From a virus (taxonomy: Duplodnaviria > Heunggongvirae > Uroviricota > Caudoviricetes), in IMG/VR virus record IMGVR_UViG_2585427755_000009: a DNA stretch of 27,338 nucleotides; one strand, 5' to 3'. The notes beneath the pieces are model-generated. The model was not told the origin of the DNA, made no database searches, and saw nothing but the letters and a program-made list of their open reading frames with translations. The position numbers were made by a program, and so were the translations under genes. Positions 8,296-27,338 of the stretch are shown here, piece by piece (the first letter of the stretch is position 1; every line of letters begins with the position of its first letter).

Positions 8296-8404
8296 ATTTA
8301 CCAATAATAACCTTACAATGTACACTACCGATTGAGTTTTCCATAGTTGGCCTTTGGCTCTACTTACCATCTATGTTTATGTATTTTATCAAAATGGACT
8401 AAAA

Positions 8405-10297
8405 ATGCACAATACGTACATCAAAGACTATCTAGAATATTACCTTAGCCTTAAAACTGAACCTCAATACGCCATTATGCTTAAAGGTGCTTGGGGATCA
8501 GGTAAAACTTGGTTCATTGAACGAGTTCTTGAAGAATATAGGCAGAAACATTCAGAGTTCAAATTTCTAAAAGTGAGCTTGTATGGCGTCAACTCTATTG
8601 AGCAGATTGAAGATGAGTTCTATCGTCAACTGCATCCTGTCCTATCAAACAAAGCCCTTATCTTTGGTGCAAATGTACTAAAAAATACGCTTAAGGCTAC
8701 TTTCAAGATCGATCTTAATGGCGATAATAAATCTGACGTAGATGTCAATAGCAATGTTCCCACCATTAATCTTAGCGACTTTACTAGAAAACCAGATGGT
8801 TTTGTGCTGGTCTTTGATGATGTCGAGAGAGCTGGTGTAGATTTACCAATCTTATTTGGATATATAAATCACTTTGTGGAGGTAAACGGATACAAAGCGA
8901 TCTTGGTTGCCAATGAAGATGAAATAATCAATAGAGAAAAGCGAATAAATAATGATGATGAGAAATCTCGCAATGAATACATGAGAACAAAAGAAAAGCT
9001 AGTAGGTAAAACATTTGAAGTAACGTCAGATTTACATAGTGCTTGTAAGATTTTTTTGAACGTAATTAGTAGTTTGCATGTTGCTAATATATTTAAAGAA
9101 GATATGCAGACAATAGAGGACCTCTATGTGTCAGCGAATTATAATAATCTAAGACACTTGAGGCAGTTCTTTCTCGATGTACAACGAATTATTTCCCTTT
9201 TGGGAGATAAATATGTAAGTAACGATGAATTTATAAGGGTGTTTTTTCATCAATTGTTAATTTTTTCGATGGAGTACCGGGGAGGGAATCTTAGTTACGA
9301 GGATTTCAATTCAATCGGCAATGTTAATTATGGTATGTTTTTGGGTAAAGAACGTGTCAAAAGTAAGTATGACATGATTGTCGAGAAATATTCGTCTCCT
9401 GTATTAACCGAGAAGTTACTGGATGGTGCGTCTTGGAGAGAACTAATCTGTGATGGAAAGGTAACGGGTGATCTTCTTGCTCAGTTGGATATTACGCGAT
9501 TTTTTAGAAGCAGCGATTCCCAAGCATGGGAGTATTTGTGGAACTATAGAGAACTAAATGAAACTATGCTTTATGAGCAGTACGCTATTGCTAAGGATAA
9601 CCTGTTTTCAGGTAAGATCACTTCCTTAGGTGAACTTCTGATGACAGCGAGTATTTTGCTGGAAATGGCGAAAGAAGGTCTAACAACAGATGATGTTCAT
9701 GATCTCATAAATGAGACAAAACAGAATATAAATAATTATTATAATAGACTTAGAGCTGAAGATGTACATAAGGAATATGCGCAAACACATTATAACGAAT
9801 TAAGGGCATGGCGTGGTTTAGGTTTTCTTGACAGGGATAGTGATGACTTTAAGCTCATTATTGAACATATTAAAATAGAAAGGAAGAAACGGTTTGATGA
9901 TTCAATTTCGGAATTTGCATTGCAGTTCAGAGATGAGTTACAAAGGGGAAAATTATCGTTGTTATCTGAATTGAGTCATTCTAATAATAGACAGTTAAAT
10001 CTTCATGATGTACCTTTTTTACACTTAGTTCCTGCTGATGTTTTCATTGAAAGCTATAGGAAACTTGATCCAGTTATCATGAGGAAACTGGCATTTAGCT
10101 TACGGAGTCGTTATTCTGATGCGGATGCCAGAACTAGACTGATTGAAGAATATAACTGGTTGATCAACCTAAAAGATATAGCTGTAGATTTCATTAAAAA
10201 CTCAGAAAATAGCGTTTTTCAGGTCTTTCACGTAAAATTTTTCATTGACTATGTACTAACTGACGCAATCAAATTCTTTAGTGATGGGACAAATTAA
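8405..10297 (+). CDS. KAP-family P-loop NTPase
   Basis: Walker A GAWGSGKT close to the N-terminus and a Walker B-like hhhhDDVER (VLVFDDVER), the arrangement of KAP NTPases. About 630 aa, AT-rich relative to core phage genes. ATG 8405; the track start at 8354 is TTG. Confidence 0.8.
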   Translation: MHNTYIKDYLEYYLSLKTEPQYAIMLKGAWGSGKTWFIERVLEEYRQKHSEFKFLKVSLYGVNSIEQIEDEFYRQLHPVLSNKALIFGANVLKNTLKATFKIDLNGDNKSDVDVNSNVPTINLSDFTRKPDGFVLVFDDVERAGVDLPILFGYINHFVEVNGYKAILVANEDEIINREKRINNDDEKSRNEYMRTKEKLVGKTFEVTSDLHSACKIFLNVISSLHVANIFKEDMQTIEDLYVSANYNNLRHLRQFFLDVQRIISLLGDKYVSNDEFIRVFFHQLLIFSMEYRGGNLSYEDFNSIGNVNYGMFLGKERVKSKYDMIVEKYSSPVLTEKLLDGASWRELICDGKVTGDLLAQLDITRFFRSSDSQAWEYLWNYRELNETMLYEQYAIAKDNLFSGKITSLGELLMTASILLEMAKEGLTTDDVHDLINETKQNINNYYNRLRAEDVHKEYAQTHYNELRAWRGLGFLDRDSDDFKLIIEHIKIERKKRFDDSISEFALQFRDELQRGKLSLLSELSHSNNRQLNLHDVPFLHLVPADVFIESYRKLDPVIMRKLAFSLRSRYSDADARTRLIEEYNWLINLKDIAVDFIKNSENSVFQVFHVKFFIDYVLTDAIKFFSDGTN

Positions 10298-10583
10298 TAT
10301 TTTGTTGATTAACATAGGGATATATTATGAGAAGTACTAGGGATGGTCAGCAACATTATTAATGTCCGCTTCGCTCAAAGCAGGCTTTGTGCTTTGTAAG
10401 TACGTATGTTTCGTTTATCAAGCGATCATTCGGTTACTGGATTTCAGTTCCCCCGTAAGTGCATGACTATGCCGCATGAGATCGCATGATCGTTTGCGGA
10501 TCGTTTTTGCTAAGGCCCGCCAGAACTGGTGGGATTTTGCGTAGATCATGCACCTGCATGAAAACCGCTACATAAAGCGGGCA

Positions 10584-10602
10584 GGCGTGGCGGGGATACG
10601 AT
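10584..10602. other. Putative cos (cohesive-end) core of a P2/186-type phage
   Basis: GGCGTGGCGGGGATACGAT matches about 14/19 (P2) and 16/19 (186) of the cos sequences as I recall them. It lies in a 360-bp GC-richer non-coding island between two AT-rich cargo genes, where P2-family cos is expected (between the A side and Q). The comparison is from memory. Confidence 0.3.
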
Positions 10603-10659
10603 TGCGCGCGCAAGCTAAAGTGGCAATAATGAGCATGTAAGGTAAAATTCAAGGAGATT

Positions 10660-11814
10660 ATGATGTATATCTGCGAAAGTCACATTGTTGAATCAAATAT
10701 AAAAAAACTAATTTTTTCGCAAAATATACGAGGTATTTGTGCTTTTTGTTGTGCAGATACTGTTTGTTTAGATACTGATTCTTCAGAAGTACGTAATTTG
10801 TTGAAAGCTATTCTGAGATATCATTATGATGAAGTCGATTACAATACTCATTTTGGAGGGGAGTATTACCCGAGTTTTCTATTGGAAGATGATTTTATTT
10901 TCACCAAGGATATACAGGAGCATGATGAATCTTTTGGGGAACTCGATAGCGAATTGTGGGATATGGCATTTGATAGTGAGGGAATAAATATTTATGCAGG
11001 CTATGGATCTGATGGTCTATATAATACGCCATATATGTCTATCAGAAATGCACATCAGCCATTTTTAGATTCTCTGTCAAAACAGCTTTCAGAAAAGAAT
11101 TACCATGATTTTGAAGGTGAGCTAAGAAGTATTATAAAAGGTTATGGTGATATTTTTTCGAAGATAATAGAAGGAAGTTCTGTGGTATATAGAGCCAGAG
11201 TTGGGACTGCTGGCTATAAAACAGCACTTAGGGGATTTAGCCGTGAAGGAAAGAAAATATTTGTTCCATTTAAAGATAAGGAAATAGGAGCCGTGCCACC
11301 ACTAAAGGCTACTGCTGGCAGGGCTAATAGAGCAGGCGTTTCTTACCTTTATTGTGCTACAGATAGTTATACTGCAATTGCGGAAGTTCGACCTCATCCA
11401 ACAGATGTTGTTTCAATTGGTAAATTTAGAGTTGCAAAAGCATTAAAGGTATTCGATTTTTCTTATCCTAATTTTTTAGAGTTTATTGAGAGTGATGAAA
11501 GTTTATTATCCATGATACCATATGCAAAGATGGCAGGTATTTTTAATACTGCAACTCCACCTTCCTTAGAAGGAAGATATAGTGTGTCCCAACTAATATC
11601 TGATTGTATAAGGAAAGAGGGGTATGATGGTATACAATTTTCAAGTACAGTTGGTAAAGGTAAGAACTTGGTTGTTTTTAATCCTTCATGTATGGAATTT
11701 ATAGATGGTTCATCAAAAGTAATAGAAATTGACAAGGTTCAGTATATTTACGAGGAAAAGCAGGTTGTTGGTATGAATGATCAATGGGAGATTTATTACG
11801 ATGAAGTTGAATAA
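10660..11814 (+). CDS. RES-domain protein with a Cys-rich N-terminal extension (putative NAD+-targeting toxin/Abi effector)
   Basis: C-terminal half carries the three RES landmarks: GRANRAG (Arg), YLYCATDSYTAIAEVRPH (Glu) and DGIQFSSTVGKGKNLVVF (Ser). N-terminal 200 aa has CxxH...CxFCCxxxxC. AGGAG RBS; AT-rich. Confidence 0.8.
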   Translation: MMYICESHIVESNIKKLIFSQNIRGICAFCCADTVCLDTDSSEVRNLLKAILRYHYDEVDYNTHFGGEYYPSFLLEDDFIFTKDIQEHDESFGELDSELWDMAFDSEGINIYAGYGSDGLYNTPYMSIRNAHQPFLDSLSKQLSEKNYHDFEGELRSIIKGYGDIFSKIIEGSSVVYRARVGTAGYKTALRGFSREGKKIFVPFKDKEIGAVPPLKATAGRANRAGVSYLYCATDSYTAIAEVRPHPTDVVSIGKFRVAKALKVFDFSYPNFLEFIESDESLLSMIPYAKMAGIFNTATPPSLEGRYSVSQLISDCIRKEGYDGIQFSSTVGKGKNLVVFNPSCMEFIDGSSKVIEIDKVQYIYEEKQVVGMNDQWEIYYDEVE

Positions 11815-11821
11815 GTGATAA

Positions 11822-11857
11822 TAGCCCCATTGAGAATTTTCATTTCTCTTGGGGCTA
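11822..11857. terminator. Stem-loop, likely bidirectional terminator between the convergent RES-domain gene and portal gene
   Basis: TAGCCCCA / TGGGGCTA outer stem with inner GAGAA / TTCTC stem and 7-nt loop, in the 52-bp gap between convergent stop codons. Confidence 0.45.
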
Positions 11858-11866
11858 ACTTAAATA

Positions 11867-12898
11867 TTAATCAAAGCAATATGAATTGAATGTAATTAAA
11901 TCTTCACCTAGCCAATCATTGACCTCCTCCATCCTTTTTTGTAAAGGTAGCAACTCGTTTCGAACAAACACATTAGCAGCCTTCTCCACATCCCCAAATC
12001 CCCCGACATTATTTGGCATTATCCCCATCATCTGTGGCGGCACGCGGTGTGCTGCCATCATGTCATCGCGACTAACATTTTTGATATTCAGAAATTCATC
12101 CTTCGCCGCGACTTCTGACAACGGGATAATCTGAAGTCCGTCCTTTTTGCCGTTCGGCGAGTACATAAACAGGTTGCGGAAGTTGCCCGGACCTTTGGCG
12201 CTTTTCATCGCATTACGGAGGTTGTTCACATCTTCCTGGTTCTGCGCGGCATCGGTCATGTACATGATGAAGCCTGCATGACTACCGTTAATGTAATACT
12301 TCCGGCGGAACAGCGTGGCGGACTCGTTGAGCAGGGCTGACGGAATGGCAGAAAGATAACCGGGCAGGCCGTAGATCTCCTGGTTGATATCCGGTTCCAT
12401 CAGGTGAAAAATGCTGCCTTTCGTGAACTGATACGGCTGTGTAGTCATGCCGTATTGCACAAACCAGTAGGTATCCAGGTCTAACCCGCGTCGGGTGTAT
12501 TTTGCCAGAGCAGGCTCAAGGGCGATAACTTCACCGAAGCGGTTCGTGCGTTTCTCCAGGTAGGCGTTACCAAATACCAGATAGTCCTGCACAAAACGTG
12601 AAAAAGCCTGCTGGCTGAGCAGCGGGTGAGGGATGTAGGTACTGGTCAGAATGTTGCATTTCACCGCAATTGGTGAGCTGTGATGCACGGCGGCGCGGAA
12701 GGTTCGTGCCAGTCCGTCAAAGCTGACGGGCGGCTCATACCAGCGATCCATCTGTACGCATTCCACATAGTCCAGCAGTTCACGGCGGTCCAGAACAGGA
12801 ACGGGATCGCCAAAGCTGAATGCTTCGGCTGAAGTTTGGCTTTTATGCTTGAGCTGATTCGTCGCCGCAGCGCGGTTTTTCTTACTCTTTCCCATCAA
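11867..12898 (-). CDS. Q: Portal protein (P2 gpQ family)
   Basis: 343 aa, transcribed leftward together with the terminase; size and position are those of P2 Q. Confidence 0.9.
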   Translation of the reverse strand: MMGKSKKNRAAATNQLKHKSQTSAEAFSFGDPVPVLDRRELLDYVECVQMDRWYEPPVSFDGLARTFRAAVHHSSPIAVKCNILTSTYIPHPLLSQQAFSRFVQDYLVFGNAYLEKRTNRFGEVIALEPALAKYTRRGLDLDTYWFVQYGMTTQPYQFTKGSIFHLMEPDINQEIYGLPGYLSAIPSALLNESATLFRRKYYINGSHAGFIMYMTDAAQNQEDVNNLRNAMKSAKGPGNFRNLFMYSPNGKKDGLQIIPLSEVAAKDEFLNIKNVSRDDMMAAHRVPPQMMGIMPNNVGGFGDVEKAANVFVRNELLPLQKRMEEVNDWLGEDLITFNSYCFD

Positions 12899-20239: not shown

Positions 20240-20935
20240 TCATGTCAAATATTGATAACTTTTATCAATTTCAAGTTTGTGAAATTTGGTTATCTTTGAA
20301 TCAATGTATAAATCTATGAACATTGCTATCCCTATCATAAATATAAATAGAATGCTTAAATAAATAATGGGGGTGGCAATCATAATTGTAAATTTGTTCT
20401 TGTCTGTAGTTTTTGCTAACTCTTCTTTCTTTTCAGGAATTAGCAAGTAGCTACAAATGAAATCTTTTGTGGCTTGTTGGATTGAAGTGATCTTATCAAG
20501 CTGTGACTTGTCAACACATACATCTGGTGTGATATTCCATTCAGATGTGTATGGTATGTTTTGTGCGTGTTCTGGTTTCATCCAAAAGGAATCTTTTGTT
20601 TCTCTATGTGTGATTTCAACCCAATTTACGGGTTCTTTGGCGATGAAATAGGTAAATTTATAAAAACAAAGTGCTGAGGTCATAATGACTGCAATTCCAA
20701 ATGAGACGATAAATATTTTATGTTTTTTAATATGGGGTTTTGTGCTTAACTTATATTTGCAAAGACTAAGTCTAATAATTGGCTTTGATATTCCAATCTT
20801 TGATATCAAAAAGTCTTCTTCTGGATAGGATGTGTTTAACCATGACCAAAAAGCTGAGATGCCACCTATAAGCCATTTAAATATAAGACCACCAATGGCC
20901 GTAGCTAAAAATGTATTTATTTTATCGATTTCCAT
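20240..20935 (-). CDS. Integral membrane protein of unknown function (AT-rich moron between S and V, opposite strand)
   Basis: 231 aa with 3-4 predicted TM helices. Strongly AT-rich, antisense to the late operon; its stop codon is one base from the gpS stop. Confidence 0.6.
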   Translation of the reverse strand: MEIDKINTFLATAIGGLIFKWLIGGISAFWSWLNTSYPEEDFLISKIGISKPIIRLSLCKYKLSTKPHIKKHKIFIVSFGIAVIMTSALCFYKFTYFIAKEPVNWVEITHRETKDSFWMKPEHAQNIPYTSEWNITPDVCVDKSQLDKITSIQQATKDFICSYLLIPEKKEELAKTTDKNKFTIMIATPIIYLSILFIFMIGIAMFIDLYIDSKITKFHKLEIDKSYQYLT

Positions 20936-24881: not shown

Positions 24882-25322
24882 ATGAATTACATATATTCCG
24901 CGACTACAAACTCTTTCTATCCGCTGGAGATGAAAGAGGATTACACTCAAGCTGACTCATGGCCAGATGATGCTGTTGAAGTTGATGAGCAAGTGTATAT
25001 TGAGTTTTCCGGATTACCGCCGAAAGGAAAAATCCGTATCGCTGGAGAAAATGGTTTTCCTGCATGGTCTGAAATTCCACCACCAACACATGAGGAACAA
25101 ATTGCTGCAGCCGAATTGGAGAAGCAGCAATTGATTAATCAGGCCAACGATTATATGAACAGTAAACAATGGCCTGGTAAAGCGGCTATTGGTCGTCTGA
25201 AAGGTGAGGAACTGGCGCAATATAATTTGTGGCTGGATTATCTGGACGCACTGGAACTGGTTGATACCTCCAGTGCTCCAGATATTGAATGGCCTACGCC
25301 TCCGGCAGTTCAGGCCAGATGA
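24882..25322 (+). CDS. G: Tail fibre assembly chaperone (P2 gpG / Mu U family)
   Basis: 146 aa immediately after H; conserved C-terminal DxxxxWP motif region (APDIEWPTPP). Confidence 0.8.
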   Translation: MNYIYSATTNSFYPLEMKEDYTQADSWPDDAVEVDEQVYIEFSGLPPKGKIRIAGENGFPAWSEIPPPTHEEQIAAAELEKQQLINQANDYMNSKQWPGKAAIGRLKGEELAQYNLWLDYLDALELVDTSSAPDIEWPTPPAVQAR

Positions 25323-25887
25323 CATCCGGCGCGGTGCTGGTATCTGTTGCCGTCACCGCGTCAATGTAATCCAGCACAGCGTTAAGTCTGGTTGTTTCTG
25401 CCTGCGTCAGTTTACGTTCGGCCTGTAATTTCAGCTGAATCAGACTAATGGAAGCCATTGCTGCATCAATCAGTGACTGGCGCTGTGCTTCTGCCGCTTC
25501 TACTGCGGCACCGTGTTGTGCCTCAGTATCTGTCACCCATTTCTTACCATCCCATTTATCATATGGCGTTAACGGTGAAAGCGTGACATAACCGTTTTTG
25601 ATGGCACCGATATAATCCACTGTAACAGCAGCACCATTTTCGATTGAGTAAACAGTCTCATTGCGATGGTCTTCTTCATGGCTCCATCCCTTACCTGTAA
25701 ATACTGCCACTCTTCCCGGAATGTTTTCGCCAGGGTCAATTCCAGTGGAACAGGCGGGCATACTTACGCCAGTATTAATATATTCATCAGACCAGCCCGT
25801 ATACTCAGATGTTTCAGCATCATAATAAAAACAACGCATATCGCCCGGCACTGTAGCCAGCCCATTTTTATCAAAAACAGGTTTCAT
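25294..25887 (-). CDS. Alternative tail fibre assembly chaperone (G'), convergent with G
   Basis: 197 aa on the minus strand after H'; C-terminus APDVIWPELP parallels the G C-terminus; the 3' ends of G and G' overlap by 29 bp. Confidence 0.75.
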   Translation of the reverse strand: MKPVFDKNGLATVPGDMRCFYYDAETSEYTGWSDEYINTGVSMPACSTGIDPGENIPGRVAVFTGKGWSHEEDHRNETVYSIENGAAVTVDYIGAIKNGYVTLSPLTPYDKWDGKKWVTDTEAQHGAAVEAAEAQRQSLIDAAMASISLIQLKLQAERKLTQAETTRLNAVLDYIDAVTATDTSTAPDVIWPELPEA

Positions 25888-27338
25888 TATTTAGCCCTCA
25901 CCAGAAAGTTAAATGCGATGTTACGTGGTCTGACGGCTATAAAATTCACACCATCACCCACTGAATTACTGGTGTAATGGTATCGAGAGAAACCCGGCTC
26001 GTGTGCTGATATTCCATCGTGATTAGCAATCGAATGGCCGGACCCCTCTGGATAATTACCTCCAAATTGCGATAAAGATGTTGCTGCCTGCCAGCTTAAT
26101 AATGCTCGTCCACTGTCCGCCCCTCGCCCGTCATCCCAGATACGAATGAAATCACCGCGGGCTTCAGGTAATACCAGCGAAGGAAACACTTTCGCCAGCA
26201 CAGGGTAATCAGTGGCAGAGAATTTCGCGCCGTTGAACTTCAAAAACACCATGCCGGACCAGCTTTCGATTACGGTATCTGGCATTGCAGCGGACGGCCA
26301 GAAGAACGGAACACCAATAGCTGGAGCACCTTCTCCCAAACCAAGGTATGTGAGAAGACCAGCTACATCCTTTCCACTCAAATTGGTAAGCGTATTGTCC
26401 AGCGGTTGTTTACCTGACAGCGCATTAAGCATTGTCGTGGCAAAGTTCGGATCATTCCCCAGCGCCGCTGCCAGTTCGTTCAGCGTATCCAGTGCCGCAG
26501 GTGCAGAACCCACCATTGCTGCAATTGCCGATTTCACAAAAGCGGTAGTGGCAATCTGTGTATTGTTGACCGACTGCGCCGCCGTGGGAGCTGTTGGCGT
26601 TCCGGTAAGTGCCGGACTCGACAGCGGCGCTTTCAGTGCCAACGCATTGTTAATGGTGGTACTGAATTTCGGATCATTGTTAATGGCTACGGCTATTTCT
26701 TTCAGCGTGTCCAGCGTGGCTGGCGCACCATTAATAAGAGCCGTCAGTGCCGCCTGAACAAATGCAGTGGTCGCAACCTGCGTGGTATTATTCCCCGCCG
26801 CTGGCGTTGGCGCTTTGGGGGTTCCGGTAAACGTTGGACTTTCTTTGGGTGCATACTGTGAATGTGGGTCCGCTGCGGCAAGGTGTTTTGCCATTTGGTC
26901 ATCCACATACACCTTCAGCTCCAGTGTCTTATCATCCACATACTTGCGGGTTGCCAGTACTACAGCAGGGTCGATTTTCAGGGTGATATTGTCCGTACTG
27001 CTGGTAATCAGCACCATGCGCACGGTCTGGGTGCGCCCGCTGCCTTCAGCCAGTTGCGGCTTATAGCTTTCCGGGCAGTTGCCCACGGCAATCAATGCCC
27101 CGGATTCATCAAACAGGCCCACTTCACGTATCCACCAACCGCCCTCATTTTCAGGGATCACCTGTTCAGCAATAATCTGGCTGCTGTTCTGCGGGTCGAT
27201 ATAGAGCATATTCAGCGCAGCCCGGCGTTTCTCATTTACCAGTGCTGTCTGCTTTGCGTCCGGCGTTGGCAATGTTCCGCCGCCATCGCCGACCGCCATA
27301 TGGGTAATTTTTAAAGGCACACCGAGCGCGGCGGCGCT
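25887..27338 (-). CDS. Alternative tail fibre protein H' (partial; 5' end runs off the window)
   Basis: N-terminal about 320 aa identical to H, different C-terminal receptor-binding region (GAPAIGVPFFWPSAAMPD...). The reading frame stays open to the window edge. Confidence 0.75.
   Translation of the reverse strand, partial: SAAALGVPLKITHMAVGDGGGTLPTPDAKQTALVNEKRRAALNMLYIDPQNSSQIIAEQVIPENEGGWWIREVGLFDESGALIAVGNCPESYKPQLAEGSGRTQTVRMVLITSSTDNITLKIDPAVVLATRKYVDDKTLELKVYVDDQMAKHLAAADPHSQYAPKESPTFTGTPKAPTPAAGNNTTQVATTAFVQAALTALINGAPATLDTLKEIAVAINNDPKFSTTINNALALKAPLSSPALTGTPTAPTAAQSVNNTQIATTAFVKSAIAAMVGSAPAALDTLNELAAALGNDPNFATTMLNALSGKQPLDNTLTNLSGKDVAGLLTYLGLGEGAPAIGVPFFWPSAAMPDTVIESWSGMVFLKFNGAKFSATDYPVLAKVFPSLVLPEARGDFIRIWDDGRGADSGRALLSWQAATSLSQFGGNYPEGSGHSIANHDGISAHEPGFSRYHYTSNSVGDGVNFIAVRPRNIAFNFLVRAK
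26330..27338. repeat. Right arm of the perfect inverted repeat of at least 1,009 bp (truncated by the window end)
   Basis: Reverse complement of 23514-24522. Confidence 0.85.
26331..26356. promoter_or_regulatory. Hin/Gin/Cin-type inversion crossover site (hix/gix-like), right copy
   Basis: TTCTCCCAAACCAAGGTATGTGAGAA, inverted copy of the site at 24496-24521, at the inner edge of the right repeat arm. Confidence 0.5.

Follow-up and report, generated by a model that had tools for sequence, protein, structure and literature searches.

What might a RES-domain enzyme be doing as a lone gene beside the cos site of a P2-like prophage? The question is raised by the 27,338-nt stretch of DNA analysed here (the window; IMG/VR virus record IMGVR_UViG_2585427755_000009), a P2/186-like E. 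coli prophage in which integrase, CI, gpA, portal, terminase, capsid, tail and tail-fibre genes are all present, and which is 99.8% identical to a prophage of strain KE47 that adjoins rcdA/ybjJ. At 10660..11814 on the plus strand (stop codon included) an open reading frame (ORF) encodes a 384-aa protein with a predicted zinc ribbon, a helical domain and a RES domain; it has about 120 full-length homologues, and the identical protein is a RefSeq coding sequence in KE47, WP_077758113.1, labelled 'RES family NAD+ phosphorylase' (NAD+, nicotinamide adenine dinucleotide). A preliminary description of this DNA had placed the gene between a cos-like site and the portal gene and had taken it for AT-rich prophage cargo. 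Both points held, given a cos-equivalent at 10584-10602, a portal gene at 11867..12898 on the minus strand, and a GC content of 0.345 in the RES gene versus 0.564 in the neighbouring structural genes. As set out below, we think that the gene probably encodes a standalone, aRES-type, single-protein abortive-infection effector, carried as lysogenic-conversion cargo of the prophage.

The three RES landmarks that had been recognised, in order, in the C-terminal part of the protein are all present. The Pfam RES profile PF08808 matches aa 213-347 (E 2.8e-18; 66.9 bits, against a cut-off of 23.2), and it also matches all 43 of the homologues whose alignment underlies our statements on conservation. 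The AlphaFold2 model of the protein (pLDDT 93.6, pTM 0.88) divides into four parts, namely a beta zinc ribbon (aa 1-38), a helical domain (about aa 39-166), an alpha/beta RES domain (about aa 167 to about 365) and a short C-terminal tail. Comparison of this model with MbcT and ParT, as had been suggested, placed both among its best solved matches, together with NatT and P. putida Res, all of them RES toxins, and the predicted fold is that of the ADP-ribosyltransferase (ART) superfamily. On the basis of the Pfam match and the modelled fold, the putative catalytic domain (aa 167-365) is encoded by 11158..11754 on the plus strand. A sequence-profile search of all PDB chains with the protein returned nothing at E <= 0.01, and a fold search of BFVD gave partial ART-fold matches alone (TMq <= 0.27), none of them to the N-terminal module.

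Members of the RES clade share conserved R, E and S residues as well as Y and N (PMC9503650), and here R221, E242, S329, Y231 and N336 are invariant in the 43 sequences, as are R178 and R180; C5, C27, C30, N223 and R244 complete the set of invariant positions. On the plus strand the corresponding codons are R178-A179-R180 of the YRAR strand at 11191..11199, R221 (in GRANR) to Y231 (in YLYCA), a segment that includes N223, at 11320..11352, E242 (in AEVRP) at 11383..11385, and S329 (in FSST) to N336 (in KNLVVF) at 11644..11667.

The closest guide to function is a preprint of January 2026 (Osterman, ..., Sorek; bioRxiv 10.64898/2026.01.28.702374) describing aRES, standalone RES proteins from defence islands. 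In that work aRES from E. coli UC5, K. pneumoniae S_34AVR and E. chengduensis GN04826 protected E. coli against diverse phages, and infection of aRES-bearing cells led to growth arrest and loss of NAD+, which the enzyme converts to nicotinamide and ADP-ribose-1''-phosphate (ADPR-1''-phosphate), a product that the phage NARP1 pathway is not able to recycle (10.64898/2026.01.28.702374). Some phages counter aRES, using either a Macro-domain phosphatase or aRad1 inhibitors, which block the active site, and the main text reports no trigger (10.64898/2026.01.28.702374). Point mutations in the active site abolish defence, the UC5 mutants listed in Table S4 being R182A, R184A, R215A, Y225A, E236A and S334A (10.64898/2026.01.28.702374). 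These six residues correspond to R178, R180, R221, Y231, E242 and S329 of the present protein, every one of them invariant.

The relationship to UC5 aRES extends along most of the protein when profiles are used. With BLASTP the RES part alone aligns (31% identity, E 2e-12), while the family profile, aligned with UC5 aRES, covers 322 columns (residue ~3 to ~345) with a probability of 99.85% (E 1e-30), and the RES domains alone give 99.9% (E 1.4e-32) in a profile-profile comparison. The preprint defines aRES as proteins of 300-600 aa with an HHsearch probability above 80% to both RES and PF18870, found in about 4% of genomes (10.64898/2026.01.28.702374). With 384 aa and a RES domain the present protein lies within the size range, its neighbours differ in seven contexts, and its family occupies the locations expected of defence genes: the P2 gpA-gpQ hotspot, integrase-att and ogr-end slots of prophages, and a defence island in Flavobacterium. 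The preliminary description had proposed a single-protein sensor-effector acting in abortive infection, an idea that Osterman et al. 2026 demonstrated for the same architecture and that is supported, by analogy, for the present clade.

The two kinds of protein are alike in being single standalone proteins in which an N-terminal CxxC...CxxC zinc ribbon is followed by a helical domain of ~130 aa and then by RES, and in residing in defence hotspots, the UC5 type also being P2-prophage cargo. They differ in several respects. Canonical aRES are ~450-500 aa long and have a beta-rich C-terminal extension (aa ~369-425 in P0262, a UC5-type protein) that the present clade lacks; the motif is GRMN in aRES and GRANR here; the beta-hairpin between the YRAR strand and GRANR is longer in the present clade; and the P2 slot is cos-Q here, whereas the UC5 type lies between the tail-fibre assembly and sheath genes. 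P0262 has 459 aa and is 98% identical to the validated UC5 protein; its gene (L016 6001-7380) likewise belongs to the cargo of a P2-like prophage, in the Z/fun slot. With P0262 in Z/fun and the present gene in cos-Q, two different RES defence clades are therefore represented among P2-like phages, each in a slot of its own.

A known defence hotspot of P2-like phages lies close to cos, between gpA and gpQ (Rousset et al. 2022, PMC9122126); others are the integrase-att region and the Z/fun locus (PMC13586616). The RES gene sits within the gpA-gpQ hotspot, between cos and portal. In this it resembles the old and tin genes of P2, AT-rich non-essential cargo beside cos in a P2-like prophage and expected to exclude other phages; it differs from them in lying on the gpQ side of cos, old and tin being on the gpA side, and in encoding an unrelated protein.

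Among the ~120 homologues most are 375-410 aa long and align from end to end. A profile of the N-terminal module alone retrieved 249 clusters (E <= 1e-3) from 1.84 billion representatives, nearly all of ~380-410 aa or fragments; ten of these matches were scanned, and all ten carried RES and none carried HEPN. The present clade comprises about 250 clusters at 50% identity. The RES gene is found in only 6 of 5426 complete E. coli genomes, and a tblastn search of 50,697 phage records returned just two distant partial RES matches. Two homologues have unusual architectures: P0221 (612 aa) combines the N-terminal module of this clade and RES with a C-terminal HD phosphohydrolase domain, and in P0084 (512 aa), annotated as a recombinase, a serine-recombinase domain (PF00239) is joined to an incomplete copy of the RES protein, possibly reflecting a disrupted gene.

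The neighbours of these homologues vary. One of the six E. coli genomes has an 82%-identical RES copy behind a small unrelated gene, and two more E. coli homologues (74% and 55% identical) again occupy the cos-Q slot, behind unrelated genes. In Yersinia proxima the homologue occupies the integrase-att slot of a P2-like prophage, with host genes on one side and the integrase on the other; that of Proteus mirabilis lies beyond ogr, at the other prophage end, and the Flavobacterium homologue belongs to a defence island with NERD, Shedu, OLD-like ATPase, Mrr and DUF4238 genes. Because no neighbour gene is conserved across the inspected contexts, the RES protein is standalone.

The preliminary description had reported a Cys-rich N-terminal extension of about 200 aa with a zinc cluster of the form CxxH...CxFCCxxxxC. 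The extension is indeed Cys-rich, but shorter than supposed, since the RES fold begins at about aa 167, with the YRAR strand that includes R178 and R180, and leaves a module of ~165 aa. Of the cluster, C5-x2-H8 and C27-x2-C30 stood, while C31 and C36 are not conserved. Because C5, C27 and C30 are invariant in the 43 homologues and position 8 is Cys in 30 of them and His in 13, the metal site is assigned from sequence as a predicted two-knuckle zinc ribbon, C-x2-C/H ... C-x2-C. The ribbon (aa 1-38; 10660..10773, plus strand) is modelled with beta strands at 3-5, 23-26 and 33-38 (pLDDT ~96), and the hhalign match to aRES N-termini stems from this segment. The helical middle domain that follows (aa 39-166; 10774..11157, plus strand), with predicted helices at 42-55, 70-74, 83-104, 134-143 and 149-162, is a putative sensor or regulatory domain, and comparison of the model with PDB structures found no solved structural relative for it.

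A link to a described HEPN/RES N-terminal domain had also been proposed. HEPN/RES-NTD1 (PF18870) is a mostly helical domain of ~100 aa that occurs joined to either a HEPN or a RES domain (Anantharaman et al. 2013, PMC3710099), and NTD1-RES fusions, some with an additional N-terminal Zn ribbon, have already been described (PMC3710099). Distant homologues of the present protein (P0086, P0097, P0120 and others) carry PF18870 and RES and align over more than 85% of its length; the difference is that the Pfam model has no HMMER match to the present protein or its close family. We compared profiles, using PF18870-matched protein stretches and canonical aRES N-terminal domains as surrogates for the Pfam hh-profile. 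The whole N-terminal module (aa 1-172, family members with PF18870 excluded) gave an hhalign probability of 97.6% against PF18870-bearing proteins and of 97.0% (E 1.2e-10) against 108 canonical aRES N-termini, and aa 20-172 of the family gave 88.9% (E 2.4e-6) against the PF18870-matched stretches of 7 proteins, the reversed control giving 0.1%.

In the AlphaFold2 model of P0262 (pLDDT 81) the first ~185 residues comprise beta 6-8, helix 15-24, beta 40-42, helices 43-57, 73-82, 85-99, 125-139 and 146-156, and the RAR strand 180-186, and in the present protein the elements follow in the same order at nearly the same positions: beta 3-5, helix 12-21, beta 33-38, helices 42-55, 70-74, 83-104, 134-143 and 149-162, and strand 175-181. 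The helical middle domain thus appears HEPN/RES-NTD1-like in position and in predicted secondary structure, and we read the N-terminal module as having the same architecture as in aRES, with a middle domain that has strongly diverged. The proposed link holds in substance for the module as a whole; homology of its helical part to PF18870 is not proven at the sequence level.

Several observations weigh against assigning the protein to aRES. After removal of the zinc ribbon the helical part gave no significant match, the probabilities being 1.2% for canonical aRES, 4.9% for PF18870-positive intermediates and 15.9% for a mixed set. HMMER did not find PF18870 in the protein or in the close relatives scanned individually, the family consensus giving E 0.16 in the right register. 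The tested aRES are only ~30% identical in the RES domain, and their beta-rich C-terminal extension (~75-100 aa) is absent here (384 versus 459 aa). Neither PADLOC v2 nor PHROGs has a model that matches the RES protein, the function of the present clade is inferred from homologues, and RES enzymes can also be protein ADP-ribosyltransferases, ParT being an example.

One alternative proposal is that the middle domain is a different sensor module, not a diverged HEPN/RES-NTD1, inserted between a shared zinc ribbon and RES, and that the protein, which also lacks the C-terminal domain, represents a separate defence family. Such a family would recognise another phage cue than canonical aRES does, and it might escape aRad1-type inhibitors or differ in regulation. 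The validated UC5 aRES also falls below the Pfam PF18870 cut-off (21.3 bits), and PF18870-positive intermediates compared with canonical aRES, the ribbon likewise removed, gave 88.7%. We hold the proposal to be rather unlikely, and favour a diverged aRES-type module.

The last point bears on chemistry, which is not certain because RES enzymes act as ADP-ribosyltransferases as well. A defence effector might work by ParT-like ADP-ribosylation of protein or nucleic acid, with no bulk phosphorolysis of NAD+. ParT is among the best structural matches to the model, and the sole NCBIfam match of the protein is to the ParT subfamily, at 12 bits against a cut-off of 110; the residues lost in the defence-deficient UC5 mutants are, on the other side, all retained. 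We judge this chemistry improbable, and take NAD+ phosphorolysis of the aRES kind as the better guide.

It was also reasonable to ask whether the protein is a toxin-antitoxin (TA) toxin, with the N-terminal module as a fused antitoxin or with an unlinked antitoxin, forming an addiction or persistence module that stabilises the prophage or induces stress dormancy and senses no phage. The structurally characterised RES proteins (MbcT, ParT, Res, NatT and VPA0770) are all TA toxins, and their antitoxins block the active site, as a domain in cis could likewise do. However, the toxins of RES-Xre systems are 144-250 aa long in solved entries and have a separate antitoxin, whereas the present protein has 384 aa, with an N-terminal module of ~165 aa that is confidently modelled, and has no antitoxin gene. 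The preliminary description had seen no antitoxin-like ORF upstream, and we agree: no gene of the Xre/DUF2384 type adjoins the RES gene, which has cos and a KAP nucleoside triphosphatase (NTPase) gene upstream and the portal gene downstream, and none lies beside the inspected homologues. The locus thus has neither the adjacent antitoxin gene nor the small single-domain toxin of a type II RES-Xre system.

A small ORF that spans cos (10476..10640, plus strand) was considered as an antitoxin and rejected; it has an in-frame stop in the window and lies within the generally conserved cos block. The same frame is a 54-aa hypothetical protein in E. coli K56-43-un (L014 4317-4481), and in the 446-aa annotation P0005 (L005 6001-6186) it is fused in frame to the start of the RES protein. 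Because a stop codon breaks the frame in the window, its annotation elsewhere is probably an artefact arising from the conserved cos block. In structural comparison with the PDB the N-terminal module, for its part, matched none of the antitoxin chains in RES TA complexes, homologues reside in defence hotspots and islands, and proteins of the same architecture defend against phages (10.64898/2026.01.28.702374). Taken with the missing antitoxin gene, these points leave a TA module with a slim chance.

The gene nearest upstream, at 8354..10297 on the plus strand, encodes a 647-aa KAP-family P-loop NTPase that matches the PADLOC single-gene candidate PDC-S49 (E 3e-156) and also phrog_4740, of unknown function. 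The KAP gene is AT-rich cargo too; it occupies the slot that classically holds old and tin, with gpA/DinI-like on one side and cos on the other. One might propose a two-gene system in which this NTPase senses infection and switches on the RES protein as its effector: the two genes are adjacent, co-directional and both AT-rich, and a KAP gene lies upstream in five of the six complete E. coli genomes that bear RES (H48-H50 with the KAP of the window, K56-43-un with another allele; H52 was not inspected). In K56-43-un an identical RES protein follows this different KAP allele. Nevertheless the genes are 362 bp apart, with cos and terminator-like hairpins in between, and therefore lie at the two ends of the genome once it is packaged. 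Moreover, the KAP protein matches a single-gene candidate, many E. coli genomes have KAP at ~92% identity with similarity ending just past cos and other genes downstream, and RES homologues occur without KAP in E. coli, Yersinia, Proteus and Flavobacterium. Co-occurrence of KAP and RES is not conserved, and a joint operon was rejected on this genomic context (KAP without RES, RES without KAP, cos between). We regard a two-gene system as very improbable; the KAP NTPase is an independent neighbour of the RES gene.

E. coli ET665 has a P2-like prophage with the same KAP gene, and its cos-Q slot (L002 7704-9731) holds genes for a 332-aa hypothetical protein, an HNH endonuclease and a 105-aa hypothetical protein, not RES. 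Exchange of cargo on the cos-Q side of the hotspot is therefore not tied to exchange on the gpA-cos side.

Exact and 3-mismatch searches with the P2 cos 19-mer gave no match in the window, and cos was then placed by aligning the P2 end junction. The cos-equivalent GGCGTGGCGGGGATACGAT (10584..10602, plus strand) aligns with the annotated P2 cosL and conserved flanks (window 10555-10609), is inside a 155-bp block conserved across P2-like phages, and separates the RES slot from the KAP slot. From cos to the end of Q there are 167 nt in P2 and 1264 nt here, the difference being filled by the RES gene.

At the 5' end of the RES gene a Shine-Dalgarno-like AAGGAG, read from the sequence (10651..10656, plus strand), is 3 nt ahead of the ATG at 10660 and 6 nt ahead of a second ATG at 10663. 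Because this spacing suits the second ATG better, 10663 is likely the true start. A promoter scan upstream of the gene found a single weak site, GTGGCA-17-TAAAAT (10620-10648), whose -10 element abuts the ribosome-binding site; sites were fewer than expected from shuffles, and we claim none. At the 3' end, between the RES gene and the convergent portal gene, a stable hairpin (11822..11857; RNA fold -21.4 kcal/mol, z -5.3, 0/200 shuffles as stable) is likely a two-way terminator, and the P2 tQ terminator occupies the equivalent place.

Two further regions of the window deserve mention. Between the virion-morphogenesis and baseplate genes a 231-aa ORF of GC ~0.34 (20240..20935, minus strand) matches Pfam DUF6216, and the equivalent locus of the KE47 prophage, near-identical elsewhere, carries a GmrSD restriction gene; this is therefore another variable cargo slot. 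Two Caudo_TAP tail-fibre-assembly genes (24882..25322, plus strand; 25294..25887, minus strand) face each other and are followed by a reversed tail-fibre gene (25887..27320, minus strand), and the segment 24882..27320 resembles an invertible or duplicated host-range segment.

Returning to the RES gene, its assignment as an aRES-type effector suggests the following course of events. In a lysogen the prophage would express the RES protein, and the N-terminal module, zinc ribbon and helical domain together, would hold the RES domain inactive. A cue from a superinfecting phage might then relieve this inhibition. The sensor and autoinhibitory role of the module, like the identity of the trigger, is speculative. 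By analogy with the homologues, the activated RES domain would phosphorolyse NAD+ to nicotinamide and ADPR-1''-phosphate, and collapse of the NAD+ pool would arrest growth, so that the invading phage could not replicate.

The preliminary description overestimated the novelty of the protein, whose architecture was described in 2013 (PMC3710099), the function of its relatives in 2026 (10.64898/2026.01.28.702374), and which RefSeq already labels a RES NAD+ phosphorylase. The new element is a clade, compact, divergent and rare, that occupies the cos-Q slot of P2-like prophages and that the PADLOC v2 and PHROGs models miss.

Depletion of NAD+ is among the commonest bacterial ways of aborting phage infection, and the RES route, through its ADPR-1''-phosphate product, defeats the main phage pathway of NAD+ repair. 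The present gene would extend the aRES family by a compact, sequence-divergent clade, by a second P2 slot right after cos, and by a putative sensor domain that has diverged beyond sequence recognition. Comparison with the tested aRES could reveal which part of the protein senses infection.

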